The notes: generated from the sequence alone by a model not told the origin. Shown: positions 17,681-56,615, counted from the stretch's first letter. The stretch is 64,000 nucleotides of DNA from a candidate division FCPU426 bacterium (GCA_963738405.1 CAVTWJ010000014.1:160001-224000); one strand, 5' to 3'. Translations and numbers: made by a program.

Positions 17681-20191
17681 TTATTTCAGAATGAGCAATT
17701 TGCCAATTGTTTTGCCGGAGTTGGTGGTCACCACCACGTAATAAACCCCGTTGGCTAGGTAGTTCCATCCCCAGCCCGTCAAACTCACCGTTACCGCCGT
17801 CCCAGACGGAACGTTGTAGAAAGTCTCGTCTTTCACCTTGCGGAAATTCACCGTGAAGATTTCAACCCTCACATTCGAAATACCCAAGTAGGGCGGCGGG
17901 AGGACGTTGACCGTGGGTCCCGAGACCGGGTTGGGATAGATGCCTACTGTTCCCCTGACAACCGACGGCACGGGCGACACCGTGGGCGTATGGGAAGCCG
18001 TAGTGGTCGGGGTAAAGGTCCAAGTCGGAGTCCAGCTGGGTGTAGACGTGAAAGTGGATGTGTAGCTGGCTGTGGAGGTAAAGGTGTTCGTGGGCGTGAA
18101 AGTGCGGGTGGGGGTTGAAGTGGACGATGCCGTGGATGTGGCGGTGAAGGTCACGGTCGACGTATGGGTAGCGGTTGATGTCATTGAAGAGGTAGATGTA
18201 GCCGTGGGAGTGGATGTAAAGGGAGCCGTTGATGTGGAAGAAGCTGTGTTGGTAGAGGTGGCTGTGGAAGTGGCAGTCGAGGTGTGGGTCCAGGTAGCGG
18301 TAAATGAGGGTGTGGCGGTCGGAGTCCTGGTGGAAGTAGCTGTGGGAGTGCGAGTCGGAGTGGCCGTCCCGGTGGATGTCGGAGACAGGGTCACCGTCGG
18401 GCTATTCGTTACCGTATAGGTGAACACCGGTGTCAAAGTCGGGGTTCCCGTCGTGGTTGGACTAAGTGAGGGCGTGGAAGTTCCCGTGGAGGTTTCAGTC
18501 GGCGTGGGTGAAGGCGTGGCGGTACGGGTAAAAGTCGGAGTAGGGGTCGAGGTGTATGTGTTTGTAGGTGTGCTGGAGGGCACGGCCGTATGGGTGTCGG
18601 AAGGAGTCGCGGAAAGGGTCACGGTAGGACTGTTTGTAGCCGTGTAGGTGAATTGGGGTATCTGGGTGGGGGTGCTGGTAAAAACGCTCGTGGAAGTGGG
18701 TGTGGAAGTGCGAGTAGGGGTAGGCGTAAAGGAAGACGTGGGGCTATTGACGAGAGTTGGGGTGCCGGTTGAGGTATTTATCGGCGTGGAAGTCTTTGTG
18801 GCAGTCGAGGTGCCGGTATAACTCCAAGTAGCAGTAGTGGTGGCCGTGGAAGTACTGGTGGAGGTCCGGGTAGAAGTAGAGGTGGCGGTCGGTGTGGCCG
18901 TATTGACCACTGTATTGGTGGTAGTACTAGTCGGTGTGGAACTTCTTGTCGGGGTCGGCGTCGTAGTGGGCGCAAGGGTTGGGGTCTTCGTAACGGTCGA
19001 GGTAAAGGTATTGGAGGGCGTAGAAGTCTTCGTCGGAGTGGCAGTGGAAGCCGATGTTGCGGTGGGTGTAGGCGTGACCACGGTACAGGTCGTCACCACC
19101 GCGTTATCACGGACAAAGAGGTAATCGCGAACTTCACCGGCGGGAGCGAACCACATGCTCTTGTTGCCCGGCGTCCCGAAATTATTGTTCAGGTAGGTAA
19201 AAAGATCTTGGAGGGTCGCCTGGTTCGTGCTGTAGGTGTCGGCGGCGGCTCCGCTGCCCTGCGAAACGCTGTGGGTGTATTCGATAAGCCAGGTGGAACG
19301 GGTTTGACCCGCCGCGGAGGCAGCCAATGATTTCCAGGCCGTGTCATCGGTTCCGAACATCCCGCCCCTCTGGAACTGGAAAGGCAGGGGAGTCGTATCT
19401 ATATAATTGTAGGAACCTCCCCCGCACTCCGCGGAGAGGAGATAGGAAGGCGGATATCCGGCACAAGTGTTCGCCGAGGAATTCTCGTAGGGAAACACCA
19501 TTTGGGTGACGTTGTAGCCAGGAAAATACTTCAGCAAAAGCGGTTCGTTATTACTCAACTCGGGCCCGATGTCGGTAGCGGTACCGTTGCAGGTCAAGGG
19601 ATTGGGGTGGTCATAGGAATGATCCAACATGTCCCATCCCGCCGCCCTCATGGCCTGCAGGCAGGTCCAGTTCATAAAATAACTTCCGCTCCCGGACGCC
19701 CCACCCCCATTGGCCCAGGAACCCACCACCGCTTCCCCCGCCCTCCAGCCCATGGCATCCAAAAGGGGTTTGCCGTAATCGTATTGGGATAATCGATTGT
19801 CGTCGAATGTGAGGGAATAGGCCCAATGGTAATTGTTGTAAAGGGTCGCCTTCGTGACCGCGCCTGTACCGCCTGCCGTCCAATTCTGGGCGGTTACCAC
19901 AATGGAACTGCCGGTGGTGGTGAAGGTGGCTGTTCCGGCGGAGGAACTATAGGTGGCTGAAACCGCCGCTCCATCGGCCGTGACGGCTACGGAGGCGCAG
20001 GTTCCCACATTTACGATAAGCGTTATTTTTTTGTAATTAATAAGAGAAGGGACTTTTGAGTAATCGACATTCACGCAGTAGTTCTTGTCCGCGGCCATGG
20101 CCATCGAGGCCGCTCCAGCGAAAAAGGCGAGGAAGGAAAGCAAAGTAAATCGCAATAAAGGGTGTTTAGGATTTATGCGGGAGGGTTCCAT
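17681..20191 (-). CDS. Secreted polysaccharide deacetylase-like protein (CE4/NodB fold) + Thr/Pro stalk + T9SS-like CTD
   Basis: Signal peptide; YSLTFDD and GWDMLDHSYDHP metal-site motifs; about 370-aa T/P stalk; terminal IYPNP...LANGVYY...GKLLILK. Confidence 0.8.
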   Translation of the reverse strand: MEPSRINPKHPLLRFTLLSFLAFFAGAASMAMAADKNYCVNVDYSKVPSLINYKKITLIVNVGTCASVAVTADGAAVSATYSSSAGTATFTTTGSSIVVTAQNWTAGGTGAVTKATLYNNYHWAYSLTFDDNRLSQYDYGKPLLDAMGWRAGEAVVGSWANGGGASGSGSYFMNWTCLQAMRAAGWDMLDHSYDHPNPLTCNGTATDIGPELSNNEPLLLKYFPGYNVTQMVFPYENSSANTCAGYPPSYLLSAECGGGSYNYIDTTPLPFQFQRGGMFGTDDTAWKSLAASAAGQTRSTWLIEYTHSVSQGSGAAADTYSTNQATLQDLFTYLNNNFGTPGNKSMWFAPAGEVRDYLFVRDNAVVTTCTVVTPTPTATSASTATPTKTSTPSNTFTSTVTKTPTLAPTTTPTPTRSSTPTSTTTNTVVNTATPTATSTSTRTSTSTSTATTTATWSYTGTSTATKTSTPINTSTGTPTLVNSPTSSFTPTPTRTSTPTSTSVFTSTPTQIPQFTYTATNSPTVTLSATPSDTHTAVPSSTPTNTYTSTPTPTFTRTATPSPTPTETSTGTSTPSLSPTTTGTPTLTPVFTYTVTNSPTVTLSPTSTGTATPTRTPTATSTRTPTATPSFTATWTHTSTATSTATSTNTASSTSTAPFTSTPTATSTSSMTSTATHTSTVTFTATSTASSTSTPTRTFTPTNTFTSTASYTSTFTSTPSWTPTWTFTPTTTASHTPTVSPVPSVVRGTVGIYPNPVSGPTVNVLPPPYLGISNVRVEIFTVNFRKVKDETFYNVPSGTAVTVSLTGWGWNYLANGVYYVVVTTNSGKTIGKLLILK

Positions 20192-21545
20192 CGTCGTTTC
20201 CTAATTCCTTTTGCCCTTGTGAGGCACCCAGACTGTCCAGTTGGACAGCCCCAATTAGGTTGTTCATAAGGCCATCCCGGCCGTCAAGCCGGGATAAACA
20301 GGCCCGCCTTTTATCTGAGGATCAGCAATTTGCCAATTGTTTTGCCGGAGTTGGTGGTCACCATCACGTAATAAACCCCGTTCGCCAGGGTGTTCCATCC
20401 CCAGCCCGTCAAACTCACCGTCACCGCCGTCCCAGACGGAACGTTGTAGAAAGTCTCGTCCTTCACCTTGCGGAAATTCACCGTGAAGATTTCCACTCTT
20501 ACGTTGGAAAGGCCCAGGTAGGGCGGAGGCAAGATATTGACCGTGGGTCCCGATACCGGGTTAGGATAGATGCCTACTGTTCCCCTAACAACCGACGGCA
20601 CGGGCGACACCGTGGGTGTTTGGGAAGGGGTCGTCGTCGGGGTAAAGGTCCAAGTCGCTGTCCGGCTCGGGGTGAACGTAAAGGTGGGGGTGAAGCTGGG
20701 CGTTTCGGTAAAGGTATTAGTGGGCGTGAAAGTGCGGGTTGGGGTTGAAGTGGACGATGCCGTGGATGTGGCGGTGGAGGTCACGGTGGGCGTGTGAGTG
20801 GCGGTTGACGTCATGGAATAGGTGGGTGTAGCCGTGGGAGTACGAGTCGGAGTGGGCGTCCCGGTGGATGTCGGGGACAGGGTCACCGTAGGGCTATTCG
20901 TTACCGTATAGGTGAAAACCGGTGTCAAAGTCGGGGTTCCCGTCGTGGTTGGACTAAGTGAGGGCGTAGAAGTTCCTGTGGAGGTTTCAGTCGGCGTGGG
21001 TGAAGGCGTGGCGGTACGGGTAAAAGTCGGGGTGGAGGTTGGGGTTGAGGTGGAAGTGAGGGTATTGGAAGGCACCGCCGTATGGGTGTCGGTAGGAGTC
21101 GCGGAAAGGGTCACGGTGGGGCTGTTCGTAGCCGTGTAGGTGAACTGGGGCGTCTGGGTGGGAGTGCTGGTAAAGACGCTTGTAGAAGTGGGCGTAGAAG
21201 TGCGGGTGGAAGTAGGCGTACCGGTAGAAGTAGTCGTCCAGCTATTCGTCGGGGTAGAGGTTTGAGTCCTGGTATTGGTCGAAGTCCATGTGGAAGTTGG
21301 GGTAGGCGTAAAGGAGGACGTGGGGCTATTAACGGGAGTTGAGGTACTAGTGGGGGTGTTCATCGGGGTGGAAGTCTTTGTGGCAGTCGAGGTTCCGGTG
21401 GAACTCCATGTAGAAGTAGCGGTGGCCGTGGAAGTACTGGTGAAGGTCCGAGTTGAGGTTGAGGTGGCGGTAGGTGTTGCCGTATTGATCACCGTATTGG
21501 TGGAGGTACTAGTCGGTGTGGAACTCCTTGTCGGAGTCGGGGTTC
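17681..21545 (-). repeat. Direct repeat pair: 3' about 1.2 kb (stalk + CTD) of the CE4 gene (17681-~18960) and the GH30 gene (20311-~21545)
   Basis: Long near-identical DNA (e.g. GCAATTTGCCAATTGTTTTGCCGGAGTTGGTGGTCACCA) with mostly synonymous changes and indels. Confidence 0.9.
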
Positions 21546-23607
21546 CGGTAAAAGTGGCAGTAGGCGTGGGAGTTCCAGTGGAAGTTCGGGTCGGAGTCAA
21601 ACTAGGAGTGCTGGTTGGCGTGGATGTGGTTGTCGATGTAGAGGTGCGAGTCGGGGTAGGGGTCATCGTAGGCGTCCCGCCAGGACAATAGGCTCCCAAA
21701 ACCTCAACATTGTCGAGTTGAAGATTGTAGGTCCCCCCCGCAACGCTAGCCCATTGAAACACGGTAACTTGACTGGCTGAGAAAGTCTCAGGGGTTCCGA
21801 ACCCCCGCTGGGTGAGCTGGCTGAACAGGACTGTCACCGGCGTCCATGCTGCGGACGCGGTAAAACTCACGCCGAAATTATCCCCATCGGTCACCGCAGG
21901 TATCGCCATCTGGAACCAATAGGTCCCGCTTCCCTTGGCATAAAACACGATTCCGCCGGTATAGGGGCTCAAGTCCACTGTCCCGCCCAAGGGACAGGTA
22001 ATGCCCCCATAGTTACTGACCGAGCCCGAAGCGCTCAAGCTGTGAGCAGTTGATCCCGGCGCGCCGCCGGTTGGAATGGTAATGTTGATGGTCGTGTTCG
22101 CGTCGCCGTAGGTGACCCAGCTTCCTCCCCAGTTGTTAGCGGTGTTTCCGTCCTCAAAATCATCGATCATGCAAAAAGCGCCGGGGATGGGGGTTGGCGT
22201 GCGGGTAGGGGTAGATGTCGGAGGCAGGGTATTCGTGATCGTGGCTGTGGGCCCCACGGACCCAATGATCCCCACGAAAGTCGTGATGCTCTGGGCGGTC
22301 AAGGTGTAGGTGAAGCTGTTCCCCGTAACAGGGATAGCCGTTTGGCGGGTCAGGTTATTACTGGGGTCCGTCACCCACGGGGTCACGGAACTTACGGTGA
22401 TACCGTTGAAGGTGATGGGCTGGGACACGGTCAAGGTGTTGACGTTCATGGCGACGACAACAACCGTGGTCGGAGCTGAGGGATCGTTCTTGAAGGCCGA
22501 GACTGAGACACCCGCCGAGGGCACCTCGGTGGCGCCGATACGGTAATAGCCGGGCCGGACGAACCGGCTCCAGTTTCCCATGCACCAAAGCTTCTTGGTG
22601 GAGGCGTTGTCCGAACCGATAAGGGATTCGTTAGTGCTCCCGCTGGCGGGGTACAGCCACCAAGCGTGATAGGCGTTCATGCTGGCATCCACGATGCATT
22701 GGTGGAGCCATCCCGCCACCTGTAGCCCCGATTTCATCGTGGTGTCGTTGGCGGCCCCGCTCACATCCGACATCTCGGTCTCCCAGCTTTCCTGGTTGGT
22801 TAGGTGCGTAAACCCCGCCCCCGAAAGGCTATAGGGGGTCGCTCCGTTCAACCCATAGAGGTGGTTTCCGATGACGCCGACCATGGGGGCATTCGTGGCG
22901 TCGTCCATGGCAGTAGCCGCCAAAGCTTTGTTGTCGGCAAAACTCTCCGGAATCATGATTTTGGTGGTAAGCGATGCGCCTTTGAGGGCGGTATTCAGCG
23001 CTCCGACGAAAACATCAAACTGGCCCGCGGACCATTCATTGCTCTCGTAGGTGGGGTTCCAATCCGGCTCGTTCTGAGGTGAGACCGCCAGGATGCTTAC
23101 CCCGGTGCTTGAAATTTGTGTGTTGGCGTACTTGATGTAGTTCACCAAGTAACTGGCATAATCGGTGTCATTGCCGTTGGGGGCCCCGCTGGCCGCGCCC
23201 AGAAAGTCGTTGTTGGAACTGCCCCAGGTGGACCCAGAGACACGGTCATTAGCGGGCGGCGCCCATTCGGTGCACCAGACCTGTGTGACGCCCAAGCCGA
23301 TGGCCTGCTTCATGACCGCGGTTTCCCCCGGATCCGAGATACTCGTGGTGGTGTTGGTATAGGGAATGTGGCAGCGGAGCATAGACAACCCTATTCCGTT
23401 GGGGTTGTTGCCGGTCATACCGGTGGAATCCCAATACCAGGTCGCCAATTGGGTGGAATAGGCGCTCTCGTGCCAGGCACTGCAGGCACCGAAGCCCCTT
23501 ATGTATTGGTCAGTAGTGGTGGCGTCAATGGTGGCCGTTCCGGCCCAAAGGGAAAAGGCAGACGAAAAAAACAGAAAAAAAGTTAATAACGTTTCATTTC
23601 TTTTCAT
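20311..23607 (-). CDS. Secreted GH30 (xylanase-like) + CBM11-like domain + Thr/Pro stalk + T9SS-like CTD
   Basis: Start MKRNETL at 23607; WAPPA, QNEPD (acid/base), WETEMS (nucleophile), GNWSRFVRPGYYR; MIDDFEDG..WGGSW CBM11-like domain; CTD. Confidence 0.85.
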   Translation of the reverse strand: MKRNETLLTFFLFFSSAFSLWAGTATIDATTTDQYIRGFGACSAWHESAYSTQLATWYWDSTGMTGNNPNGIGLSMLRCHIPYTNTTTSISDPGETAVMKQAIGLGVTQVWCTEWAPPANDRVSGSTWGSSNNDFLGAASGAPNGNDTDYASYLVNYIKYANTQISSTGVSILAVSPQNEPDWNPTYESNEWSAGQFDVFVGALNTALKGASLTTKIMIPESFADNKALAATAMDDATNAPMVGVIGNHLYGLNGATPYSLSGAGFTHLTNQESWETEMSDVSGAANDTTMKSGLQVAGWLHQCIVDASMNAYHAWWLYPASGSTNESLIGSDNASTKKLWCMGNWSRFVRPGYYRIGATEVPSAGVSVSAFKNDPSAPTTVVVVAMNVNTLTVSQPITFNGITVSSVTPWVTDPSNNLTRQTAIPVTGNSFTYTLTAQSITTFVGIIGSVGPTATITNTLPPTSTPTRTPTPIPGAFCMIDDFEDGNTANNWGGSWVTYGDANTTINITIPTGGAPGSTAHSLSASGSVSNYGGITCPLGGTVDLSPYTGGIVFYAKGSGTYWFQMAIPAVTDGDNFGVSFTASAAWTPVTVLFSQLTQRGFGTPETFSASQVTVFQWASVAGGTYNLQLDNVEVLGAYCPGGTPTMTPTPTRTSTSTTTSTPTSTPSLTPTRTSTGTPTPTATFTGTPTPTRSSTPTSTSTNTVINTATPTATSTSTRTFTSTSTATATSTWSSTGTSTATKTSTPMNTPTSTSTPVNSPTSSFTPTPTSTWTSTNTRTQTSTPTNSWTTTSTGTPTSTRTSTPTSTSVFTSTPTQTPQFTYTATNSPTVTLSATPTDTHTAVPSNTLTSTSTPTSTPTFTRTATPSPTPTETSTGTSTPSLSPTTTGTPTLTPVFTYTVTNSPTVTLSPTSTGTPTPTRTPTATPTYSMTSTATHTPTVTSTATSTASSTSTPTRTFTPTNTFTETPSFTPTFTFTPSRTATWTFTPTTTPSQTPTVSPVPSVVRGTVGIYPNPVSGPTVNILPPPYLGLSNVRVEIFTVNFRKVKDETFYNVPSGTAVTVSLTGWGWNTLANGVYYVMVTTNSGKTIGKLLILR

Positions 23608-23700
23608 TACTTTATCTTCCCCTGAAGAACCGGAGGCATCCGGGCCTTTTTCCAAAGCTTTTCATGCGTGCCAAGGATTTCAAAACGATTTTACGATGGG

Positions 23701-23970: not shown

Positions 23971-26900
23971 CTACTTCAAGATCAGCAGTTTACAAGTCGT
24001 CGTGGTGGACTGGCCCTGGGATTTCACCGTGCAGGTCACGATGTATAGCCCGTTGGCCAGGTAGTTCCCCACGTAGTTTTTCTCGTTCCAATAGACCGTG
24101 TGGTTGCCCGTGGAGTCGAACGAGGCTCCCGACACCGTGGTCGACCAGATCAACCGGCCATCGATGGTATAGGCCTTGAGGGTGATATCGGAGTTCGGGT
24201 CAATTCCCTCTTCGCCCGAGGAACCCACCGTCTTGGCGCTGGCATTGGAGCTTCCCGATCCGGTACCGGACAAATTAACCGCCAGGTTTACCCCGTTCCC
24301 CGTGGAGGGGTTCGGGTAGGCGATCACGCTGGCCGCCTTCAAGGCCGCAGACGATCCAGACGGCTCCTGGCCCCAAACTAAGGACCCGCCCTCATAGGCC
24401 GTGACATGGGTCCAAGGCGTGTAGCTGGTATAGGCCGCGTAGCTCCAGTCGTTGTCCTGGAGCATGTTGCTCCAGTCGCTCTTGTTGAAGCGGCTCTGGA
24501 TCTGGATAGCCTGCCCAGGCTGAAGTACCAGATTCCCGGTGAACTTGTAGCTGATGTAGTTGGTCTGGCCGCCCAGGCTGGTGGCTACGGTCGTATGCAA
24601 CACATCACTCGTCACCGAAGTCCCGGCAGGCATCAACCCCGCCCAATCCACCCAGCTTTGGACGCTCTGGTTGGTGCAGTCGCAGTTGAACCAGTAGCGA
24701 ACTTCAACATTATTCAGATTCAAAGCCCCGGACCCTGTGTTGACCACCTCAATGAAGGGGTGAGGGCTGTTGGTCGAATCGGTCGTGATCGACGACAACA
24801 GTTCCACGGTCAAGGCCGCCGCCCCGGAGGGAGTAGGCGTGAAGGTGAAGGTCGCCGTCGGAGGAACCGGCGTATTGGTAAAGGTGAATGTCGCCGTCGG
24901 CGGCACAGGTGTGTTGGTGTGGGTAAAGGTGAAGGTGGCCGTTGGGGGCACCGGCGTGTTGGTGTGCGTAAAGGTGAAGGTAAAGGTGGCCGTTGGCGGA
25001 ACCGACGTGAAGGTCGAAGTGGGTGGAATCGCCGTATTCGTCCTCGTCGCCGTCGGTGGAACCGCTGTGTTGGTGGCCGTCCCAGTAAACGTATAGGTAT
25101 TGGTTGGGGTTTGGGAGACCGTTGGACTAGGCGGAGCCGGAGTGTTGGTAGCGGTTGGAGGCAGCGGCGTGTTCGTGACCGTGGGGGGCACGGGACTATT
25201 CGTACTCGTGGCCGTGGGCGGAACAGGTGTGCTGGTGCTGGTAGATGTCGGAGGAGCCGCCGTGTTCGTAGCCGTGGGTGGTGCCGGAGTATTGGTAGCG
25301 GTCGCCGTAGGCGGAACGGCCGTATTGGTGGATGTGGGTGGCACCGAGGTGAAGGTCGAGGTCGCCGGGATTGCCGTATTCGTCGACGTCGGCGGCACGG
25401 CCGTGCTAGTCCTTGTGGCCGTGGGCGGAACAGCGGTCAAGGTCGCCGTCGGGGTGAAGGTAAAAGTGGAGGTTGGCGGTACGGGACTGTTGGTATTAGT
25501 CGCAGTCGGAGGAATAGCCGTATTCGTCCTCGTCACCGTGGGCGTAAAGGTAAAGCTCGCCGTCGAGGTACGCGTGGCCGTGGACGTTGCCGTCGGTGTC
25601 CCCGTGGCTGTCCAAGTCTTCGTGGGAGTGTTCGTAAAGGTCGGCGTGGCGGGTTGGGGGATGACCTGGATGGCTTCCACCATGGCGCTGGTATCGGTGC
25701 TGGTGGTTCCCGTGAAGGTGATGGTAATGACTCCGCCGGTGGGCGACACGTTATTGATCACCTTGTCGTCCTGGGTGTTGGCGCCCACCTGGGCGTAAAC
25801 GTCCAGGTTGGAAACAGCGGTCGAGCCGTTGACGGCCACGTTGAAAACCCTGTCCCCTGCGGCGAAGTCGCCCGAATAGGTCTCGGCGAATTTCAGGGTG
25901 ACCTGGTAGCTCCCGGCGGGCACGTTGAAGGAATAGCTGAAGCTGTTCCCGTAGCGCTGGGTGTCGTAAAGGGTGGAATCGGAGGTGCCGGTCACGGCCG
26001 CTCCCTCAGCCACGGTGGTTCCGCCGCTGAAGTTTTCATCCGCGGCCCAAACGTTGCTCGTGGTGTCCGTATAAGCCGGACCGCCGGCGTTGACCCGCCA
26101 GCTGGAGGACACAATCGGAGTCGGTGTCGAGGTGACGGTGGGGGTGTGGGTAAAGGTGGCCGTGGGCGGGACGGGGGTGTTGGTGGCCGTGGGGGCCGAC
26201 GGCGTGTTCGTCTTCGTCGGGGTGCTGGTCGACCCATTGGACTGGGTGAAACTGTACGACTCAAAATTAAAGAGTGTCCCGGATCCTCCGGTGAACACGA
26301 AATAAACATCATGCAGGCCGGTCGCGCCCGTGATCGCACAGGTGGCATTTTGCCAGGTCTGGGTTCCTCCCGTGTTGGGCACCGGGCATGTGCCGATAAG
26401 CGTGCCGGTCGTGCTGTCAAGGCGGATCTGGATCGAGCCCCCGCTGACGGTTCCCGCGACGCGGGCGCTGAAGGAGGAAGCGCCGGTCCCAAAACTCATG
26501 TTCCGAACCTGGGTCCAGGAGCCGTTAATAGTACCCGTAATATTCATCCCGCCTTCGGAGCAAACCCCAGTTTGGAGCCCCGATTCTTTGGCCATCATCA
26601 CGGCCCGAAGTGTGGAAAAGGGGTTTTGATTCTTCAAGGCCGCAACACCCGCGGTGGTTGGGGTCACGACCGCCAGGGTACCGTCCGAGTTCACGAAAAG
26701 ACGGTCCAGGTTCACGCTGCGCTGATAGACAGCGTTCCCACTGCAGGTCAGTCCGTTCAGAAGAGCCAGCTCTCGGTTGTGATAGGCGATGTAATAGTTG
26801 CTGCCGATATTGACGATCCCGGCATGGTTATTATTACCGCAGTTATTGGGAGGATTAAATAAAGCCGTCCCGCGATGGGTGAACCCGCTCATAGGGCTGC

Positions 26901-27624: not shown

Positions 27625-27675
27625 GGGTCCCCCCGAAATCAAATGTTGGGAATGCCCTCAGGCGCATTCCCAGGC

Positions 27676-31410: not shown

Positions 31411-31636
31411 GGTTACTGAAGCTCCCGTTCCATTGTACCTCGATCGCCGCTGGGAGCTATTTGACTTTACCGCCAAACTGACCGTAAAAATATCAGACCA
31501 AAAAAAATAAGCTCGAAAACTTTAAACTTAGAGTGTTAGAAGAAAAAAACCACGCCCTCAACCCAAGATCCACGGAGGGAAGGGGAAGGAAGCCCATTCA
31601 TTCCCCTGCCCGTCCGCAGTTGCCTTGGTACGGCTT

Positions 31637-38603: not shown

Positions 38604-39168
38604 TTTCGCCTTCTTTTATGAACTGCTCGACTAGCACCTTGAGCGCCTTTTTGCACCGGGAAAGCCTCGACATCACGGTCCCCAAGGGGATCTTGAGCGT
38701 CTTTCCGACCTCGATATAACTCATTTCCTTCATTTCTCGTATTTGAATAATCTCCCGGCATTCCTGGCCTATCTTTTCCAGGCATTTCTCGATGATTCCC
38801 AGCTTGAAGCGTTTTTCCTGTTCCCGATCCCCAGCTTCCTGCCGGTCCTTGGCCGCGGATTGGAGCAAAAAATCTAATTCAGCGTGTTCTTGACTCACCA
38901 GCTTCGCCCTTTGCCGGTACCGGTTGTGGCACTTAAAGATGCAAATCTGCGTCAGCCAGGTCGAGAGACTGGACCGGAACTCGAATTCGGGCAATTTTTC
39001 AAAGGCTGTGATAAAGGTTTCTTGGACCAAATCTTCAGCCTCCGGGTCCTGATAGCCCAATAAATACACGCAGTTTCGATAAAGTCTTTCCCGATAGGTG
39101 ACGAAAAACTGGGTCTTAGCTTGATCGTCGCCTTGGAGGATCTTTTGAACCAACTCCCGTTCGTCCAA
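38596..39168 (-). CDS. ECF (sigma-70 group 4) RNA polymerase sigma factor
   Basis: AEDLVQETF..AF, FRSSLSTWL (region 2); SYIEVG..L.IPLGTVMSRLSR (region 4); 190 aa. Confidence 0.93.
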   Translation of the reverse strand: MDERELVQKILQGDDQAKTQFFVTYRERLYRNCVYLLGYQDPEAEDLVQETFITAFEKLPEFEFRSSLSTWLTQICIFKCHNRYRQRAKLVSQEHAELDFLLQSAAKDRQEAGDREQEKRFKLGIIEKCLEKIGQECREIIQIREMKEMSYIEVGKTLKIPLGTVMSRLSRCKKALKVLVEQFIKEGENG

Positions 39169-48400: not shown

Positions 48401-48622
48401 CCAGACGCTGTTGGCGTTGTCCCAACGATAGACGCCTCCGATATCCGTGCGGCAATAATAAAGACCGCTCTGAACCGGGCTGAATTCCACCCCGGCCACA
48501 AACCCTCCGGCTGGAATGGTTACGTTTTTCCAAGTATAGGTTTGGGCAAACGCTTGGGTAACAAATAGGCAGATGCCAATTGTCAGCGCTTTCATAAAAA
48601 GAGACTTCAATCCCTTGTTCAC
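44357..48622 (-). CDS. Secreted GH74 xyloglucanase + Thr stalk + unknown Ig-like domain + T9SS-like CTD
   Basis: YCRTDIGG, GERLAVDPN, GLEETAV, VGDISG, WTRIND..HQFG, YIGTNGRGILYGD. Confidence 0.92.
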   Translation of the reverse strand: MNKGLKSLFMKALTIGICLFVTQAFAQTYTWKNVTIPAGGFVAGVEFSPVQSGLYYCRTDIGGVYRWDNANSVWVPLNDMYSNSQYNYYGGESIAPDPKNANVVYEAAGMYTASGNGVILSSTDQGNTWAVNTIAVPMGGNNDGREAGERLAVDPNLTSTLYFASRSNGLWTSTNSAASWSKVGGFPVSGDAGYGLSYVLFDPHGTSGTASATIYVGVEAMASGNSNLYRSTNAGASWTLVPGGPSNMITPRACLGTDGNLWVVYDSGGYGPNSITTGQIWKLNTSTLAWTQVTMPNPAAGSGGFGGLSVDAENAQHVVVATLDWWGGPDHIYSTTNGGTSWSVIGNAQNSWDGGPFANYNNNGALWTRFCSTYDGGVGWQGDVRIDPFNSGHAIYTTGGGVWDSSNITAGTQPAGVTWTFKDYGLEETAVLAINSASAGGIFFSAVGDISGMRHTNLTQSPAGGMYCNPSFTNTNCVDFAESNTNDVVRVGNSSTTTSDVAYSTNNGQTWTPWGSAPPGYGTSNEMGSVAVAANGSHVVVSPYNGYGSPAYASSLGGAWTTCTGLPSGAQLASDRVNPTTIYATSGNTLYVSTNSGSSFASVNTFTGTGMPRAVFGEAGEVWVPAGGSGLFRFTNGGTTKATIANVSSATAVGFGISTNGAPPANHPAVYLVGTVSGTYGFFRCDDGVGTTWTRINDANHQFGAAGYAGGDETVYGRMYIGTNGRGILYGDISSGSTNTPTPTLTATRTNTPSLTPTPSPTKTSTPSNTITPTLTNTPTPSSTATRTPTPSSTSSPTPANTSTSTSTATRTLTATQTSTPTVTKTTTLTATQTVTPTATLTVTGTSTRTSTSTATTTSTPVSTSTPTLTATTTNTKTTTLTQTPTTSRTFTATVTPTQTATSSLTSTPVFTGTPTATFQFSATNTLSPTPTLSLTTTVTSTQTGTSTSTRTQTNTPTASLTATSTYSLTATLTSTSTRTTTNTVTNTPTTTETPTPTSQFSPTNTLSPTHTLTVTTTSTPTQTSTASRTPTMTLSPTFTSTPTQTYTPTQTFTPTRTSTLTATPTVTSTSTSTDSPTVTDTPTVTPTPTDTPPFTYTQTPTFTSTATATSTSTFTSTSTPTASNTSSWTPSFTPTVTSTKTFTPTLTSTQTYTPTSTATSAVVNMGSGFVGTVNTISGSGNITDIQVSVTNPSGAPVTLNNLTLTDSGTGNTADITGVSVVINGTAAGIQAVFTGNTANLTLSNYVLPPGTQTLQIVVNFSNSSSGTYNLSITTMTGTSGNNGGQAASFTGLPVTGYTVVVTRPTSTPTETATPSVTATPSITPAPTAIPGHVGIYPNPGTGPTVQVLPPPYIGISNVRVEVYTLAFRKVKDVTFDSIPSGTAVTLTLTGRGGNNLANGIYYVVVTVNGNRSIGKLLVLR

Positions 48623-48860: not shown

Positions 48861-51800
48861 CTAACGCAAGATCAGCAATTTAGCTGTGGATCTTCCCCCG
48901 CCTGTTGTCACCACGAGGTAATAAAGACCGTTCGACAAGGGATGCCCGCTTCTTCCCGTTAAGTTCAAGATCACCGCCGTGCCTGAGGGAACCGAAGTGA
49001 ATGTCACGTCCTGCACTTTCCTAAAGGCCAAACTGTAAATCTCAACCCTCACATTGGATGTTCCTGAATAGGAAGGGGGAAGAACATTGACGGTCGGACC
49101 AGTTGCGGGATTGGGATAAACACCAAGGAGCTCGGCAGTGGGGGTGTAAGTTTGTGTTACCGTACCCTGAAGAATAGTTGTGGAAGTCGGGCTTGGCGAA
49201 GGAGTGGCGCTGAATGACGCTGTGGAAGTTACAGTAGCCGTGGGCACAACAGGCGTATGGGTACTCGTGAGGGTCGGAGGGACTGATGTAAAAGTCGAAG
49301 TGGGCTGAGGTGTATTTGTCGATGTCGGAGGTATGGAAGTGTTCGTGGCGGTCGGCGGCACCGGGGTATTCGTCGATGTTTGCGGAACAAGCGTAGAGGT
49401 TCTGGTCGCGGTGGGAGGAAGGGGCGTGGCAGTCGATGTGAAAGTAGGAGGGACGGGCGTATTCGTGGCGGTTGGGAGAACCGCCGTACTGGTCAAGGTG
49501 GGCGGAACCGGACTATTCGTAGCCGTAAGGGTAGGCGGCACAAGAGTTTGTGTTGGGGTGCTGGAGGGCGGTGCCAATGTTTGAGTCGGCGTAAGGGTAG
49601 GGGGTACAGGCGTGGCGGTGGGCGTTAAAGTAGGTGGAACCGGGCTGTTTGTATTTGTGGCCGTTGGCGGGACCTGAGTATTGGTTCTCGTCGAAGTCGC
49701 GGTCGCCGTTACGGTCAAGGTGGCCGTCGGAGGCACAACGGTATTTGTTTTGGTAGCCGTAACCGTGCCGGTTGAGGTGGAAGTAACGGTCGGTGGAACG
49801 GGTGTATTGGTAGAGGTTGGGGGAACAGGGGTATGGGTGCGGGTCGCCGTTAAAGTCAGTGTGACGGTGGTCGTCGAGGTATTGGTCGGCGGCACAAGTG
49901 TGTTCGTGCCCGTGGCCGTGGGGGTACTCGTCACCGTCGAGGTCGCGGTTGGAGGAACCGGCGTATTTGTCTTTGTCGGGGTCGGCAGATTACACCCATT
50001 CCCGAATGCATCCATCGCGTGGGTAGGCTTCCCCGTGTTATCGAATGCCACCAACCCATAACCCATCCAGTTGTAGGCTTCCGGCTCCCAATAAAAAACC
50101 CCCAATCCATTCCCGCCCGGAAGGCCGCTGTTCTTGGCGATGATATCGGAAAGGAACGCGAAAGAATTCGTCGGGTCCGTAACGTCCATTCCCACTTCCG
50201 AAATGACAACAGGCTTTCCATAGCGGGTGATCATGTCGTTCATATTGGTCAGGCATTGGGAATCCAAGGTGGCCCAGTTGGTCGTGGAAGGGTAAAGGGA
50301 CATGCCGATGGCGTCCCAATTGGCGCCGGCAGCCTTTAATCCATCGAACATCCAGCGGAACAAAGTATTATCGTAGCCATTGGAAATGTGGATGACCACC
50401 TTGGCGGCCGGTTCCACCGATTTGACCGCCGCGTAACCGCTGTTAATAAGTTGGGCGAATGCCGGGAATCCGTTGACGGAGACCCGCCCCCCCGGGTCTC
50501 CCGTATTAACCGGCCACAGCATCCCATCATTCGTTTCGTTCCCCACCTGTACCCATTCGGGATGGACTCCCGCCGCCGACAAGGCGCTCAACACATCAAC
50601 CGTATGGTCATGGACCCCTTGGACCAGCTGGGCCATGGTGTAGGAGGCCCAAGCCGCCGGCTTGTTCTGTTGGCCGGGGTCAGCCCAGGAATCGCTGTAA
50701 TGGAAATCGATCATGATCCGGTAACCCATGGCATTGGCCCGGATGGCCATGGCCACCACGTCCGCTTTGCCTGACCATCCCGGCGCCGCGGGATTGACCC
50801 AAACCCGAAGTCGAATGGCATTAATGCACTTTTCCTGGAGGACCGACAGACATCCCATGGTCACCCCGGAATTGTCCTGGAAGGTTCGCCCCTGGGATTC
50901 CATTTGAGACAACCAACCCACATCCGCTCCCCGAGCGAAGGGAGCAGAAACACTCGAAGTAGCCGTCCAAGTTGGTATGGCGGTTAGAGTGCTTGTTTCG
51001 ATTGCCGTGGCTGTATTCGTGAATGTCGGTGGAACCACAGTATTTGTTCTTGTGGAGGTCGGTGTCAGAGTAAATGTTGGAGGCAAAGCCGTGTTGGTCC
51101 TAGTGGCGGTGGACGTTCCAGTCGCGGTTGAAGTAGGGGTGGGGGGAACAGGCGTTGAGGTGTGGGTTGAAGTCGAGGTTGCCGTGCTGATCGCCGTACT
51201 GGTACGGGTGGGTGTGGCGGTTGCAGTCGCTGTATTCATTGGAGTATTCGTTCGAGTCGCGGTTGAGGTGCCGGTTGTTGTAGCCGTCGGAGGAACTGCC
51301 GTGTTGGTACGGGTTGGAGTGGAGGTGAAGGTCGCTGTGGCGGCGGATGGCGTGTTGGTTCTCGTAAAAGTAGCCGTTGGCCCGCAAGCCGGAAAAGCCA
51401 CATCGTCCGTCCCCGCCATAGCCGCGTTGTAGGTTGTGACCGCAGCGGTATTGGAAGGCGCCTTGCCGTTGATCAGGCAGTTGCAATCGAAGGTGACTCC
51501 TTGGGTGTTGAACACGTCGAAAATCTTGGAGCCCGTCAGGGTGCAGGCGTCGAACAAGATGTTGGAGACCGGTGCCTGGGGCAGTCCCCACATAATCCCC
51601 ACGTTGGCCGTGCCGGTGGAAGCCTGACTCGCGGTGACATTCTGGAACTTGATATTTTCCCAGAAGGGCGTAGTGCTGTTGGCGGCTGAACCCGTGTCCG
51701 TGGCCGGATTGGAAGGCACGGTGGGGTAGTAGCTGTACATGAGGATGGGGTTGACCATGATGTTGGACATGGTGACGTTGGAGTAGGTGATGTTGGAGGT

Positions 51801-52649
51801 GATTCCGCCTTCGGTGTTGTTCGACTTCAGCCTCAACCCGTACTGGGTGCCGTTAAACACGCAGTTGTCGACCAGAACGTTGGAGACCCCTCCCGAAGTG
51901 ATGCTTCCGATGGAAAGACCGTGCCCCGTGCCGAAGGTACAGCCCGAGACCGTGACCCCGTTGCAGGCGTTGGAACCGCCGATCTGCACCACGTCGTCCC
52001 CGTCGCTGATGTAGCAGTTTTGGATGTTGACGTTCACGCCGCGCAGGTCGATGCCGTCGGTATTGGGGGAAGGCCAGGGGGCGGTGATGGAAAGGGCCGA
52101 AGCCAAAATGTTGGTGCCGTTGCCCAGAAACTGGATATGGAACTTGGGCGAGTTCTGCACCGTGATGCCCGACACCGTCACGCTCGTGCATCCCGTGAGC
52201 TCGATCATGGCGGGCGGGCGGTTGTCCGTTCCCCCGCCGTTGAAATAGGTCCACCATTCCTGCCCCTGGCCGTCCATGACGCCCGAACCGTTGATGGTGG
52301 TATTGGTCAGCTTGGAGCCGTAGAGAAAATCGGCGCTCACCGGATAGGCCGGGTGGCTTCCGGTGGCCGTCATGGGAAGCATCATGAGGGTGGCCCCGGC
52401 GGAAATTTGGAAGATCATGTTGCTCTTGAGGGTCATCGGGCCGCTATAGAAGGTGCCAGCTGGAACCAAGACAGTACCGTTGGTTCCTACCGCGTTGATG
52501 GCGGCCTGAATGGCGGCGGCGTTATCAGCATTACCCGTCGAGGCGTTATAGGGCGCCGAGGTAATATTGATGGTTTGGGAATTGGCGGTTGAACCGGTTA
52601 CACAAAAGAGGCCTATCAAAGTGAACAATGAAATGAATTTAAGTTTCAT
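48861..52649 (-). CDS. Secreted bifunctional GH28 polygalacturonase / GH53 endo-beta-1,4-galactanase + stalks + T9SS-like CTD
   Basis: GH28 [23 protein letters not shown]53 [45 protein letters not shown]. Confidence 0.92.
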
Positions 52650-52652
52650 CTT

Positions 52653-55600
52653 TTATCCCAATATTAGGATTTTGGAGAGGACCGAGCTCTTTTGTCCGTT
52701 GGACTCCACCGAGACCCGCAGGATGTAGACCCCGTTGGCAAGATGCGATCCCTTGATCGCCCGCTCGTTCCAGTAAAGCTCATGCTCCCCGGTCGTCCCA
52801 TAGGCCCCGCCCGTGACCGTCTGGGTCCAGATCAGCCTCATGGCCATGGTGTAGATACTCAAGGTGATCTTGGCGTTCGGGTCCAATAAAAGTGGATGAT
52901 TGGCAACTAACAATGAAGCCACCGCCCCGGTCTGATTTCCATTAAGAACAAACGAAAGAGTTGTTCCGTTTCCGGTCGAGGGGTTCGGAAAAGCCACCGC
53001 ACTGGCTACCGTCAAGGCCGCCGGAGCCGCCACTGGCTCTTGGCCCCAAGTCAGTGTTCCGTTCAAGTATCCGGTCACCTGTATCCAATCGGTGAAGCTC
53101 GTGTAGGCTGCGAAGCTCCAGTCATTGCCCTGGGCCATATTGCTCCAGTCGTTCTTGTTGAACCGGCTCTGGATTTGAATCGCCTGGCCCGGCTGCAAGA
53201 CCATGTTCCCCGTAAAGGTGTAAAGCACGTAGTTGGTCTGTCCTCCCAAGCTGGTTCCCTGCACTGACACCTGCACGTCGCCCGTAGCTGTGGTACCCGC
53301 CGGCATCAACCCAGCCCAATCCACAAAGGCTTGAACCGTCTGGTTCGTGCAATCGCAGTTAAACCAGTACTTCACCTGCACGTTGTTCAGGCTCAAGGGT
53401 CCGGTACCAGTGTTGACCACCTGGATCTGAGGATGGGGGCTGTTGGTGGTGCCGCTGGTCACTCCGCTCAGCAATTGAATCTTGAAGCTCGTGCTGGCGA
53501 CTATTACGGTGGGGGTCGGGGTGTCCGTCGGCAAAGGAGTAACGGTGAAAGTCATGGTCGGAGGGACAGGGGTCCTTGATGGAGTGGGAGAGGCTGTCCT
53601 CGTGGCGGTTCCAGTGGGTGTGGAAGTTCCCGTCGAGGTCGGAGGAACCGGTGTATTGGTTCGGGTAGCGGTAGAAGTAGAAGTGGAAACCAAGGTGTTC
53701 GTTGCGGTGGCTGTTGGCGGCAGAGCCGTAAAGGTGGAAGTGGGTGTTCGAGTTGGGGACGAGGGCACCGGGCTATTGGTATTTGTGGCTGTTGAGGTAC
53801 TCGTCGGTGGAACAGGCGTTGCAGTCCTCGTGGTGGTAGGCGGCACAGGGGTTGAAGTCGATGTGGAAGTGGGTGGAACAGGGGTACTTGTAGAAGTTGC
53901 GGGTACGGGTGTGCTGGTCGAGGTTGGCGGCACAGGCGTTTGAGTCATGGTGGGGGTAGCGGGAACGGGTGTGTTCGTTGTCGTGGGAGGAACAGATGTG
54001 CTTGTTGATGTTGCGGGCACAGGGCTGTTAGTGCTCGTAACGGTGGGAGGCACGAGAGTTGAAGTAGAGGTCGCGGGGACAGAAGTGCTGGTAGATGTTG
54101 GCGGGACCAAAGTGTTTGTAGATGTAGGCGGTACCGGGCTATTGGTATTCGTTGCCGTAGGCGGCACAGGTGTTTGAGTTGAGGTTGGGGATGGCGGTAC
54201 AGGACTATTCGTAGCGGTTGCGGTGGGCGGCACGGCCGTATTGGTTTTCGTGGAAGTCGCGGTGGCCGTTGGCGGAATGGAAGTATTGGTAGATGTAGGT
54301 GGTATAGCTGTATTCGTTCTCGTGGCGGTAGCCGTCGAAGTGGCCGTGGTGGTGGGTGTGGAGGTCGGCGGAACGGCCGTATTGGTCTTAGTTGCGGTGG
54401 CCGTACCTGTCGCGCTCGCCGTGGGAGTATTCGAGGGGGTGGGGGTGCGGCTCGGGGTGGAACTAGACGTGCTGGTCGCTGTCGGTACCGCCGTGTTCGT
54501 TCGGGTCGAGGTTGCGGTGGGCGGCAGGGGTGTGTTCGTTTTAGTCGCGGTAGCGCCCGTCCCCACCGTGGGTGTGGGGGTTGGGAACCCGGTTAATTCG
54601 AGACGTAGGTAATCATATTCAAACCCGTTTCCAACACCCGCCCCGCCGGTCGCCCGCATACCGATATCGATCTCGTTCATTCCTGCCTTCAGTTTATTGC
54701 CCGCGAAGTTCAGGTAAGCGTCACCCCATGCCCCCTGAGAACCCAGACGAAGGATGGAATCAAAACTGACGTTCGGCGGGTAGAAGCCGGTGGTGGCGTT
54801 GGTGATCGTGGTGTAGTTTCCGTCGGTGGAACCCATAACCGAGGCGGTTTGGACGGTACCGTTGATGGTGAGGATGCAGGCCGAGCTGAAAGCGGAAGCG
54901 AAGGCGATGTATAGCCTTGCGGTTTGGGACGTCGTGGGTGCCGTTGCCAAGTTGAAAAAAATCTTGGACGTGGACCCATTGAAGCCTCCCGATCCATTGG
55001 AAACGGTCGGCTGGCAATAGTCCCAAGCGGTGCCGGGGTCGCTGGTCCCGACCACAAAACTGACCCCGTTGGGATACTGGGCGGGATAAGCCATGAAAGC
55101 GCCCCAAGCCGCCGGAACATCGTAAGGAGGGCCGCCCGCGTAGGCCGGCAGGATACCGCTATAGGGCGTCGATTGGTGTTCTCCATTATTGAACTCATTC
55201 GAATTTCGGTCGGGAGAGCCGATTTCCCACACGGTGGGCCCCAGGCGCAAGGGCGACCAGGTCAGGGTGCCCAAATTCAAAGACTGGCCTGCGGTTACAG
55301 AGACATTGGCCTGCTCAAAGGTTCCGATCACGCCGGGGCCGAAAGCCCAAAGGTTATAGGTTCCGGGCAACACATTGGGAATTGAAAATGTTCCTCCCGT
55401 TCCCGTGCGGACCCAAAACTGGCTGGTGAAGTACTGCTGTTGGAAATCCACCCCGCCATCGACCGGCGCAAGCCCGATCCACAAGCTGACTGGCGAGGTT
55501 CCCGGATTGTTCGGATCATTGATTCCGAGAGTACCGCTCACCGTGGCGCGGCTTGAAGCCTGGGGATAGACCGTGCCGGTTGCGCCGGCCACCGGTTGGG

Positions 55601-56615
55601 GGTTGAACCAAGTGTAGGGCCAAGCCGCCTGTTCCGCAGCCGCTTGGGCCTGGGCGTCCGCCCAAAGCACCCGAGCCTTGAGCGAAACGGGATCGCTGGA
55701 GGAACCGGTGTACTGGTTGGCGTAAATAAAAGCGGGTCCGAAGGTCTTGGATGAAAAAGTTCCCGCGGGCTGGTCTTGAGTCAGGCCGAACCCGTAGTGG
55801 CCGCCTCCGAACATGTCCAACAAAGTGTTTCCAATGTGCTCGGTGAGCTCCCGGTGCATCGGCCCGCCGTCTTCAAACTCGTGACTGGGCAGCGTCTGCC
55901 AGACGCCGTATTTGGAGGTCGAAGAAGCCCAACCCCAGGTATCCACTTGGCCCAGGGGAGAGCTGTAGGAATATTTGCAATTCGTGAGTCCGTTATAGGG
56001 TCCGGCGGTATATTGCATCACTTCCGGGGGCGCGCCCGGCACGGTGGTTACCGCGGTACTGGGAGGCGCCATCTGCCGGAATCGGTAGGGATCCACGCAC
56101 AGCCAGTCGAACGCGGAGCCGACGTACATATTGGTGCGCAGTTCGGCGCCGGGGTAGTCGGGGTAGCCTGCCTCGTGGGTGAGGACCATGGTGTCGTAGA
56201 TGCCCTGTTGTCCGCGCAGTAGATCGTAATAGACGGCCATGTCCATGGGGCTAGCGGTTGATTGCAGCCACACTTCCGCCTGGTTGCCGCCGTTGTTGGC
56301 GGGGTTCACGCTCAGCGTATAAACCGTATTGGCCAGGGTGGGCCCGCCGGAACCGTCGAAGTAAAAGTACCCTCCTCCGTTTCCTCCTGATAGGAGGTTC
56401 GTACCGTTGTAGGTGAAGTTGGTGATATTCCCGTTGGATTTGTTGATGGTAATAGAGACGATGCCGTTCGCGAGGACCACGGTTCCGCCGTTATCAGTCA
56501 CGGTCACGTTGGCGCCGGTGCCGGTACCGCCTCCGGCAACGTTCGCGAAGGTGTTAGGGACGCAAAATGAGACGGCTCCCAACAGGAAAAGGAAAATGAT
56601 TTTAATTCGGTTCAT
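52653..56615 (-). CDS. Secreted rhamnogalacturonan lyase (PL4) + Pro/Thr stalk + CBM3 + T9SS-like CTD
   Basis: LANGIVSITI, KYSYS, EF..GGP..REL, HYG, WPYTWF, NVLPGTYNLWA, WEIGSPDR..EF, YDYLRLE. Confidence 0.88.
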   Translation of the reverse strand: MNRIKIIFLFLLGAVSFCVPNTFANVAGGGTGTGANVTVTDNGGTVVLANGIVSITINKSNGNITNFTYNGTNLLSGGNGGGYFYFDGSGGPTLANTVYTLSVNPANNGGNQAEVWLQSTASPMDMAVYYDLLRGQQGIYDTMVLTHEAGYPDYPGAELRTNMYVGSAFDWLCVDPYRFRQMAPPSTAVTTVPGAPPEVMQYTAGPYNGLTNCKYSYSSPLGQVDTWGWASSTSKYGVWQTLPSHEFEDGGPMHRELTEHIGNTLLDMFGGGHYGFGLTQDQPAGTFSSKTFGPAFIYANQYTGSSSDPVSLKARVLWADAQAQAAAEQAAWPYTWFNPQPVAGATGTVYPQASSRATVSGTLGINDPNNPGTSPVSLWIGLAPVDGGVDFQQQYFTSQFWVRTGTGGTFSIPNVLPGTYNLWAFGPGVIGTFEQANVSVTAGQSLNLGTLTWSPLRLGPTVWEIGSPDRNSNEFNNGEHQSTPYSGILPAYAGGPPYDVPAAWGAFMAYPAQYPNGVSFVVGTSDPGTAWDYCQPTVSNGSGGFNGSTSKIFFNLATAPTTSQTARLYIAFASAFSSACILTINGTVQTASVMGSTDGNYTTITNATTGFYPPNVSFDSILRLGSQGAWGDAYLNFAGNKLKAGMNEIDIGMRATGGAGVGNGFEYDYLRLELTGFPTPTPTVGTGATATKTNTPLPPTATSTRTNTAVPTATSTSSSTPSRTPTPSNTPTASATGTATATKTNTAVPPTSTPTTTATSTATATRTNTAIPPTSTNTSIPPTATATSTKTNTAVPPTATATNSPVPPSPTSTQTPVPPTATNTNSPVPPTSTNTLVPPTSTSTSVPATSTSTLVPPTVTSTNSPVPATSTSTSVPPTTTNTPVPATPTMTQTPVPPTSTSTPVPATSTSTPVPPTSTSTSTPVPPTTTRTATPVPPTSTSTATNTNSPVPSSPTRTPTSTFTALPPTATATNTLVSTSTSTATRTNTPVPPTSTGTSTPTGTATRTASPTPSRTPVPPTMTFTVTPLPTDTPTPTVIVASTSFKIQLLSGVTSGTTNSPHPQIQVVNTGTGPLSLNNVQVKYWFNCDCTNQTVQAFVDWAGLMPAGTTATGDVQVSVQGTSLGGQTNYVLYTFTGNMVLQPGQAIQIQSRFNKNDWSNMAQGNDWSFAAYTSFTDWIQVTGYLNGTLTWGQEPVAAPAALTVASAVAFPNPSTGNGTTLSFVLNGNQTGAVASLLVANHPLLLDPNAKITLSIYTMAMRLIWTQTVTGGAYGTTGEHELYWNERAIKGSHLANGVYILRVSVESNGQKSSVLSKILILG

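Follow-up and report, generated by a model that had tools for sequence, protein, structure and literature searches.

By which route would a bacterium with neither a polysaccharide utilization locus (PUL) nor a cellulosome display a large set of plant-wall enzymes, and by what signal would it switch them on? This question is raised by a 64,000-nucleotide stretch of DNA (hereafter the window; GCA_963738405.1 CAVTWJ010000014.1:160001-224000) from an uncultured soil bacterium of candidate division FCPU426. On contig 14 of the genome, window positions 17681-56615 hold a row of genes for secreted carbohydrate-active enzymes (CAZymes), which end in tails resembling the C-terminal domains (CTDs) that mark type 9 secretion system (T9SS) cargo. 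We read this row as a locus for the attack on hemicellulose and pectin, whose products would be exported by a reduced, apparently motor-less relative of the T9SS and which would be switched in part by a sensor of four genes; we give this reading a probability of roughly 55%.

Enzymes, tails and stalks of the row

According to the open reading frame (ORF) listing of the window, the minus strand of the row is filled by 14 consecutive ORFs (Table 1). Searches with Pfam, NCBIfam and PDB sequences assigned nine of them to the enzyme families CE4, GH30 (three genes), GH43, GH74 (two genes), GH28 plus GH53 and PL4, with one PA14-CBM9 lectin among them; both GH74 xyloglucanases were missed by every Pfam model and were identified via PDB entry 6p2m. 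These identities bear out the first-pass annotation, which had described nine secreted enzymes and one lectin on the same strand. Its picture of a continuous enzyme array, however, holds for the enzymes and their tails but not for an unbroken row, which is interrupted by five non-enzyme genes (barrel, lectin, anti-sigma, extracytoplasmic function (ECF) sigma factor and AraC regulator), and the regulatory cassette formed by four of these had been overlooked.

The enzymes share one layout, in which a signal peptide is followed by one or two catalytic modules, binding modules, a stalk and a C-terminal immunoglobulin (Ig)-like sorting domain. Signal peptides, read by eye without a predictor, are present at the N-terminus of all ten tail-bearing proteins. 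The ten tails (the last 85-95 residues) align with each other; G74 and Y76 are invariant, and the motif PNP occurs in 7/10 and DPN in 3/10. Six enzymes carry subtype 1 ('IYPNP...KLL[IV]LR'), three carry subtype 2 with 'DPN...KLLILK'-like ends, all three of which also possess CBM3, and the lectin represents subtype 3.

Curated profiles recognised the tails in part. The T9SS tail model TIGR04183 (cut-off of 23 bits) scored over its cut-off in 3/10 tail proteins by hmmscan and in 5/10 by six-frame search, while Pfam Por_Secre_tail touched five of the ten proteins, below its gathering score in all five. The three DPN tails matched only the tail end of the PorU model, and the tail of the second xyloglucanase (GH74b) was matched solely by a profile built from the row's own tails. 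An AlphaFold model of the tail, built on an 18-row alignment, has seven strands and a predicted local distance difference test (pLDDT) score of 88.4. The top-ranked Foldseek match of this model is a DUF3244 protein (4g5a), and the list contains the CTDs of PorU (6za2, 26% identity), RgpB (7pq4) and mirolase (8qb1), PorZ (5m11), and the translocon-bound CTDs of NucA and RemA (8glk_D, 8gl6_D). On this evidence the ten tails are modelled as T9SS type-A CTDs, and the fold prediction agrees with the T9SS-like identity first proposed for them.

Genome-wide, a profile of the ten tails was run on 8507 ORFs and then iterated, which gives the cargo count that had been called for when the row was first annotated. 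It matched 37 ORFs, with every match ending at most 11 residues from the C-terminus, and 77 ORFs after iteration, although some drift of the iterated profile to FlgD_ig-type Ig domains is likely; the match is C-terminal in 74/77. TIGR04183 gave 30 matches across the genome, 24 of them over the cut-off (five of these in the window).

The long linkers rich in proline and threonine that had been noticed at the outset are real: stalks in the row span 200-450 residues rich in proline and threonine or serine (PT/S), such as residues 367-744 of CE4, 734-1163 of GH74b (the longest, at about 430 residues) and 698-1037 of PL4. Stalks and tails go together in this genome, where at least 100 PT/S-rich residues are found in 53/75 tail-bearing ORFs and at least 300 in 28/75; seen from the other side, 53 of the 67 proteins with at least 100 PT/S-rich residues are tail-bearing ORFs. 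Enzymes on stalks of this length represent an unusual display architecture of possible biotechnological interest.

Pfam scans of the window ORFs of at least 150 aa found no SusC/D, sugar transporter, dockerin, cohesin or SLH family, as the first reading of the window had already stated. Across the genome, SusD_RagB gave no match (the control matched in B. thetaiotaomicron) and Dockerin_1 gave none either (controls matched in two genomes); cohesin was absent from the Pfam scan of the window, and no genome-wide cohesin search was made. Thus the row has neither the adjacent SusC/SusD pair that defines a PUL nor the dockerins of a cellulosome. The description 'neither PUL nor cellulosome' agrees with the genome-wide lack of SusD and dockerin matches, but it is not new. 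The available parts of previous studies describe T9SS-tagged CAZymes outside PULs and cellulosomes in 'Ca. Paraporphyromonas polyenzymogenes' and Cytophaga hutchinsonii (PMC5831590), and likewise in Fibrobacter succinogenes (PMC6851124).

Export machinery in the genome and the phylum

The genome (3.18 Mb, 23 contigs, 90.7% complete) encodes a SprA homologue of 1968 aa (C20:75216-81122), which scored 238.1 bits with TIGR04189 against a cut-off of 200. The PorV/PorQ model NF033709 gave 21 matches in about 18 ORFs, several over its cut-off. A tail-bearing gene lies directly upstream of 10/18 PorV-like genes, compared with 0.48 expected (binomial 6.7e-12). In the surroundings of the SprA gene (C20:66001-86000), a histidine kinase and a LytTR-type response regulator precede it and a 1599-aa tail-bearing protein follows; lptF/lptG and lpxI flank it as well.

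Other parts of a T9SS were not detected. GldK gave no match in the genome (controls matched weakly in three named genomes), and GldL, GldM and GldN gave none in the genome nor in any control genome. The PorU model NF033707 matched in 13 places, only over its C-terminal tail region (model positions 990-1095), so that the catalytic part of PorU was not found, and a search for PorP/SprF returned only a 35.5-bit match to a PorV paralogue with a tetratricopeptide repeat (TPR) extension. Of the genes named in the first-pass annotation as the ones to look for (SprA, PorK/L/M/N and PorU), SprA is thus present, whereas GldK and the catalytic part of PorU did not turn up. Flagellar rod, P-ring and export genes are present; to our knowledge, the Bacteroidota lack flagella.

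For SprA and GldK, this pattern extends over the sampled genomes of the phylum. Among 61 of these from at least 18 families, 46 of them at least 90% complete, SprA-like matches occur in 58/61, while GldK exceeds its cut-off in 0/61; in 23/61 its model is matched weakly over the FGE-sulfatase half. The proposal of a T9SS-like system outside the ordinary Bacteroidota is upheld by SprA, PorV and CTDs in a flagellar-gene-bearing genome with no detected GldK, PorU catalytic part or SusD. Reviews, as far as their available text goes, place type 9 secretion in the Bacteroidota or the Fibrobacteres-Chlorobi-Bacteroidetes (FCB) group and describe it as motor-driven (PMC11205867). Flagellated, CAZyme-rich FCPU426/Goldbacteria genomes of 2.7-2.9 Mb have been described in the part of PMC7031533 that was accessible, a description with which this genome is compatible. 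T9SS parts of Goldbacteria or Elusimicrobia were not described in the literature covered, main texts in part and without supplements. A genome with 75 tail-bearing ORFs, a SprA pore and about 18 PorV-like barrels, yet without detectable motor, ring or sortase, raises the question of what energises export, as well as that of how the cargo is retained.

Several PorV-like proteins of this genome are fused to further modules. Two such fusions (719 aa, and 522 aa with fn3) are encoded within a flagellar cluster, where they lie between a flhB-like gene and the rod genes (C1:182001-194000, 3503-7220). On C19 (L025 5781-11563) and C22 (L026 7232-13539), genes for tail-bearing fn3/NHL proteins stand ahead of genes for fn3-fused PorV-like barrels, both pairs near an adenylate/guanylate cyclase gene. 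C5 (L031 9132-10877; L033 5219-7654) encodes fusions of PorV-like barrels to OmpA peptidoglycan-binding domains, and one of these fusions also has FlgD_ig.

The four-gene cassette and its possible function

In the middle of the row the order of transcription is AraC regulator, ECF sigma factor, anti-sigma, lectin and barrel-TPR, and the last four constitute the cassette: an ECF sigma factor, an anti-sigma with a periplasmic Ig domain, a lectin with CTD, and a PorV-like barrel with a TPR arm. The sigma and anti-sigma genes overlap by 8 nt, and the lectin and barrel genes by 4 nt. The anti-sigma consists of N-terminal cytoplasmic helices, a hydrophobic segment (residues ~72-92, read by eye; a Kyte-Doolittle scan flagged none at its threshold in the window copy) and, beyond a P/Q linker, an FlgD_ig domain (142-208) in the periplasm. 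The barrel protein comprises the barrel (residues ~40-316), a P-rich linker and the C-terminal TPR arm (378-440); its model has an overall pLDDT of 70, with 80-90 within the barrel and the TPR arm, and its best PDB fold matches are PorV chains (8gl6_F, 6h3i_F).

Signalling genes adjoin all five PorV+TPR fusions of the genome. In three cases (the window, C11 and C23) these are an ECF sigma factor and a FlgD_ig anti-sigma; in the other two they are a histidine kinase with a response regulator (C13:39820-45037) and a SpoIIE-type phosphatase with SpoIIE/HATPase_c_2 domains (C11). The C11 copy of the cassette mirrors that of the window, with sigma, anti-sigma, a PA14-CBM9 tail protein and barrel-TPR, then three malectin-CBM3 enzymes including a GH62. 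The subtype-3 tail of the lectin resembles the tails of this C11 paralogue and of a small C23 protein, both of which also precede PorV+TPR genes.

The cassette is conserved as a unit. Seven related genomes, chosen by barrel orthologues that are 57-72% identical, all (7/7) have the four genes next to one another in unchanged order, and tail-bearing GH30, GH74 or malectin-CBM3 genes follow in all five relatives that have downstream sequence. Beyond the family, full-length barrel+TPR matches occur at 27-31% identity; overall, 25 of the 61 phylum genomes reach an E value of 1e-35 or better. A same-genus relative (G033:C28, 4991-13548) carries two sigma/anti-sigma/barrel cassettes in tandem beside a GH127 orthologue, and in the first of these the barrel stands ahead of the tail protein.

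The intergenic regions upstream of the sigma factor (39188-39213), GH30b (35002-35027) and GH43 (27717-27742) have in common the motif GGAATAAA-N11-13-AAACAC followed by AATC-like bases. It was matched three times in the window, compared with 0.00 expected from 100 shuffles. A looser form gave seven matches in the genome, and a same-strand gene starts at most 400 bases downstream only at these three. Three relatives carry related forms upstream of their sigma orthologues; such forms also precede tail-bearing enzyme genes in three relatives and one 280-aa gene without tail. At the C11 paralogue a variant with the same -35-like half and another -10-like half was seen by eye before the sigma gene and the first enzyme gene. 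Judged from the sequence, an ECF sigma factor that regulates itself and a small local regulon would be expected to leave such a pattern.

A second motif, AATTCGGTAAAYT, is found upstream of GH30a (23830-23842) and GH74b (48716-48728), with two matches compared with 0.13 expected, and may be the site of another regulator, e.g., the AraC protein. A LacI-like palindrome, TGTAACCGGTTACA, was rejected (three matches compared with 1.93 expected, not significant). Consensus scans for sigma-70 promoters and terminators over 17000-56999 gave fewer sites than shuffles and were uninformative.

Taken together, the enzymes would first pass the inner membrane by Sec export; PorV-like barrels would then recognise their tails, and passage would be through the SprA-like pore, as homology suggests. 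Since the stalk directly precedes the tail, the enzymes would probably stay tethered by their C-terminal end, with catalytic modules projecting outward on the stalks. The lectin is predicted to dock, via its own tail subtype, in the dedicated barrel, whose periplasmic TPR arm would contact the Ig domain of the membrane anti-sigma. The ECF sigma factor, once freed, could then read its own promoter and the same promoter at the GH30-malectin-CBM3 and GH43 genes, while the remaining enzyme genes are probably under the AraC regulator or other factors. We propose tentatively, as a possible rather than a probable arrangement, that the cassette is a trans-envelope glycan sensor made of T9SS parts (surface lectin, private PorV-like barrel, TPR arm to anti-sigma) and built on a motor-independent (GldKLMN-free) export. 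If so, plant polysaccharides would be sensed and answered by a PUL-like circuit that does without SusC/D and TonB-dependent transducers, and the cassette could explain how degraders outside the Bacteroidota sense insoluble plant polymers. With its recognisable promoter, the cassette is a compact and testable regulatory unit.

The predicted contact was examined by folding the TPR arm together with the anti-sigma Ig domain. The pair scored 0.55, the best control 0.00, with at least 81% of contacts shared between runs and a partner pLDDT of at least 74; the verdict of the tool was 'weak support'. Its mark was reached by 116/157 solved complexes and 2/215 mismatches, and the scores up to 0.60 comprise only 18/157 solved complexes, yet both mismatches.

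Several points weigh against the reading as a whole. The promoter motif stands ahead of only two of the nine enzyme genes, and the score of the TPR-Ig complex falls in the band that the tool grades as weak. Two secretin-domain genes (155 and 129 bits, below the GspD cut-off) make another export route possible. No positive control backed the GldL, GldM and GldN searches and the genome is incomplete, so that a divergent or unassembled motor is possible, and without a PorU homologue the removal of the tail and the anchoring of the enzymes are left unexplained. Finally, the CTD of Porphyromonas gingivalis PorA acts on its sensor from the periplasm, according to the part of PMC12152298 available, and this fits a sensor of the secretion state equally well.

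With respect to export, the tails might be ordinary Ig-like surface or adhesion domains of proteins whose exit is by vesicles or a type 2-like system, a view we hold to be highly improbable. It can draw on the secretin-domain genes, on the half of the window's tails that stay below the curated cut-offs, and on the many structural matches that small Ig folds yield. However, the tail sits at the extreme C-terminus in nearly all ORFs that carry it, the recurrent structural matches are bona fide T9SS CTDs, two of them caught in a translocon, SprA and PorV homologues are encoded in the genome with SprA-like matches in nearly all sampled genomes of the phylum, and tail genes are coupled to PorV-like genes far above chance. 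Scarcely credible is the idea that the host is an ordinary member of the Bacteroidota that has a canonical T9SS and merely lost its motor genes in assembly; 90.7% completeness in 23 contigs gives it some room, but GldK is over the cut-off in none of the sampled phylum genomes, most of them at least 90% complete, SusD has no match genome-wide, and rod and P-ring genes of a flagellum are present.

With respect to the cassette, it is unlikely, but a serious alternative, that the four genes report the state of secretion and not a glycan, the lectin tail being a periplasmic ligand of the anti-sigma that is removed by export through the barrel. In P. gingivalis the PorA CTD binds PorY in the periplasm and activates PorXY-SigP, as described in the accessible part of PMC12152298; here the PorY/PorX relay is absent from the cassette, and an anti-sigma and an ECF sigma factor stand in its place. 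The periplasmic domain of that anti-sigma is itself tail-like (FlgD_ig; tail-profile match at E 2e-10), and the third cassette (C23:168851-171958) has a 125-aa protein that is nearly tail only and lacks a lectin. On the other hand, the sugar-binding PA14 and CBM9 modules are kept in both cassettes that precede CAZyme rows, the lectin orthologues are 57-75% identical over seven genomes, and the sigma-type promoter lies ahead of hemicellulase genes, not secretion genes. Because the sugar-binding head is conserved and the targets are hemicellulases, we prefer glycan sensing to a report on secretion. It is also rather improbable that the barrel is merely a private shuttle or anchor for the lectin while the adjacent sigma/anti-sigma pair answers an unrelated envelope cue. 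PorQ anchoring PorZ is a known anchor pair and gives this idea a precedent, and cargo-barrel pairs without regulator do occur in the genome, e.g., a subtilase-CTD followed by a 330-aa barrel (C11:33736-36431). Yet every TPR-armed barrel adjoins signalling genes, the four genes stay together in all seven relatives, and the folded TPR-Ig pair reached the mark of the tool, if weakly.

Gene content of the locus and comparison with known systems

Table 1. Genes of the row, with window coordinates and the evidence for each assignment.
Feature	Position	Strand	Evidence
CE4 polysaccharide deacetylase, ~380-aa PT/S stalk, subtype-1 tail	17681..20191	-	Pfam Polysacc_deac_1 29.3 bits; TIGR04183 26.6 bits (six-frame search)
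GH30a (XynC-like), PT/S stalk, subtype-1 tail	20311..23655	-	NF052681 184 bits
GH43-CBM6-malectin-CBM3, subtype-2 tail	23971..27642	-	Pfam; promoter motif upstream
GH74 xyloglucanase, ~370-aa stalk, subtype-1 tail	27778..31476	-	PDB 6p2m E 3.7e-129; TIGR04183 26.8 bits
GH30b (GH30-malectin-CBM3), subtype-2 tail	31637..34903	-	Pfam/NCBIfam; promoter motif upstream
PorV/PorQ-family outer-membrane barrel + TPR	35082..36413	-	NF033709 107.9 bits (cut-off 90)
PA14-CBM9 lectin, subtype-3 tail	36410..37840	-	Pfam PA14, CBM9_1; TIGR04183 30.5 bits
Anti-sigma-like single-pass membrane protein, 225 aa	37926..38603	-	Pfam FlgD_ig 47.4 bits
ECF sigma factor	38596..39168	-	Sigma70_r2/r4, TIGR02937
AraC-family regulator, 604 aa	39275..41089	-	HTH_18 81.2 bits
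GH30, stalk, subtype-1 tail	41199..44345	-	NF052681 153.7 bits
GH74b xyloglucanase, ~430-aa stalk, subtype-1 tail	44357..48622	-	PDB 6p2m E 3.6e-139
GH28 polygalacturonase + GH53 galactanase, stalks, subtype-1 tail	48861..52649	-	Pfam 179.6 and 289.8 bits
PL4 rhamnogalacturonan lyase-CBM3, 340-aa stalk, subtype-2 tail	52653..56615	-	Pfam PL4 domains II and III, CBM_3

The NF052681 score of GH30a is below the equivalog cut-off and assigns it at family level only. Neighbouring genes of the row share 3' modules (malectin, stalk, CBM3 and tail) as direct DNA repeats of 82-94% identity, among them the pairs 23969-25885 and 31635-33266, 18329-18961 and 20821-21543, and 41199-41498 and 44357-44656. 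The malectin-CBM3-tail parts of GH43 and GH30b are 91-94% identical, the stalks of CE4 and GH30a 86-90%, and the tails of the latter two 95%, which suggests recent module swapping or gene conversion inside the row. An orthologue of the AraC regulator (65% identical) was found in the array of one related genome (G021). For the stretch 33000-41200 three sequencing runs are listed, all of soil DNA and from one study; two of the three hold part of it, and none is RNA.

The row is flanked by trehalose synthesis genes, a Na+/H+ exchanger, kdpABC-kdpDE, GH127, DinB, a Fic protein and MetH. A GH127-like beta-L-arabinofuranosidase (56913-58985) is divergent from the row, and it is probably periplasmic or cytoplasmic because it has no sorting tail. 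At the other end, positions 3-4769 encode two adjacent trehalose routes (OtsA/OtsB-like genes and a TreT-like synthase), with a mechanosensitive-channel-like gene and a DUF5752 gene between them.

Compared with the tagged CAZymes described in the available parts of PMC5831590 and PMC6851124, the row is alike in combining plant-wall enzymes with a TIGR04183-type tail, some in operon-like clusters, without SusC/D PULs or cellulosome parts. Those Bacteroidota, according to the same parts of these papers, encode a full T9SS, whereas here GldK/L/M/N and the catalytic part of PorU are undetected. The stalks here are far longer (about 430 PT/S-rich residues at most), and the term 'linker' does not occur in the text of PMC5831590 that was available. 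Unlike the systems in these two papers, so far as their accessible text describes them, the row has a sigma/anti-sigma/lectin/barrel cassette embedded in it.

The nearest structural counterpart is the SprA-PorV translocon of Flavobacterium johnsoniae (PDB 6H3I, 8GL6, 8GLK): SprA is over its family cut-off, the barrel model resembles the PorV chains, and the matches of the tail model include the CTDs of NucA and RemA as bound in that translocon. SprA is shorter here, with 1968 aa compared with the 2319 positions of the family model. Unlike in F. johnsoniae, PorV is represented in this genome by about 18 paralogues, of which many carry fused TPR, fn3 or OmpA modules, and no motor or ring was detected.

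By analogy, the nearest signalling precedent is that of P. gingivalis, in which the CTD-bearing, lectin-like protein PorA binds to PorV and provides input to PorXY-SigP, according to the available part of PMC7712824. Both systems have a tail-bearing, lectin-headed protein, a PorV-type barrel (with tail binding here predicted) and an ECF sigma output. Where P. gingivalis uses the PorY kinase as sensor, the cassette has a single-pass anti-sigma that carries an Ig domain, and its barrel, a paralogue dedicated to it, extends a TPR arm into the periplasm; unlike in P. gingivalis, all parts lie in one cassette. The predicted regulon also differs, with hemicellulases here and secretion genes there.

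In Bacteroides PULs (SusC-like/anti-sigma/ECF sigma) and in FecA-FecR-FecI, an outer-membrane barrel senses the substrate, a membrane anti-sigma relays the signal and an ECF sigma factor activates neighbouring degradative genes. The cassette would follow the same trans-envelope logic, but it has no TonB-dependent transducer; its barrel belongs to the PorV/FadL family, and recognition would be left to a separate lectin. The locus is thus set apart from known T9SS-tagged CAZymes by the undetected motor, ring and sortase, the many extended PorV paralogues, the great length of the stalks and the putative sensor cassette within the row.

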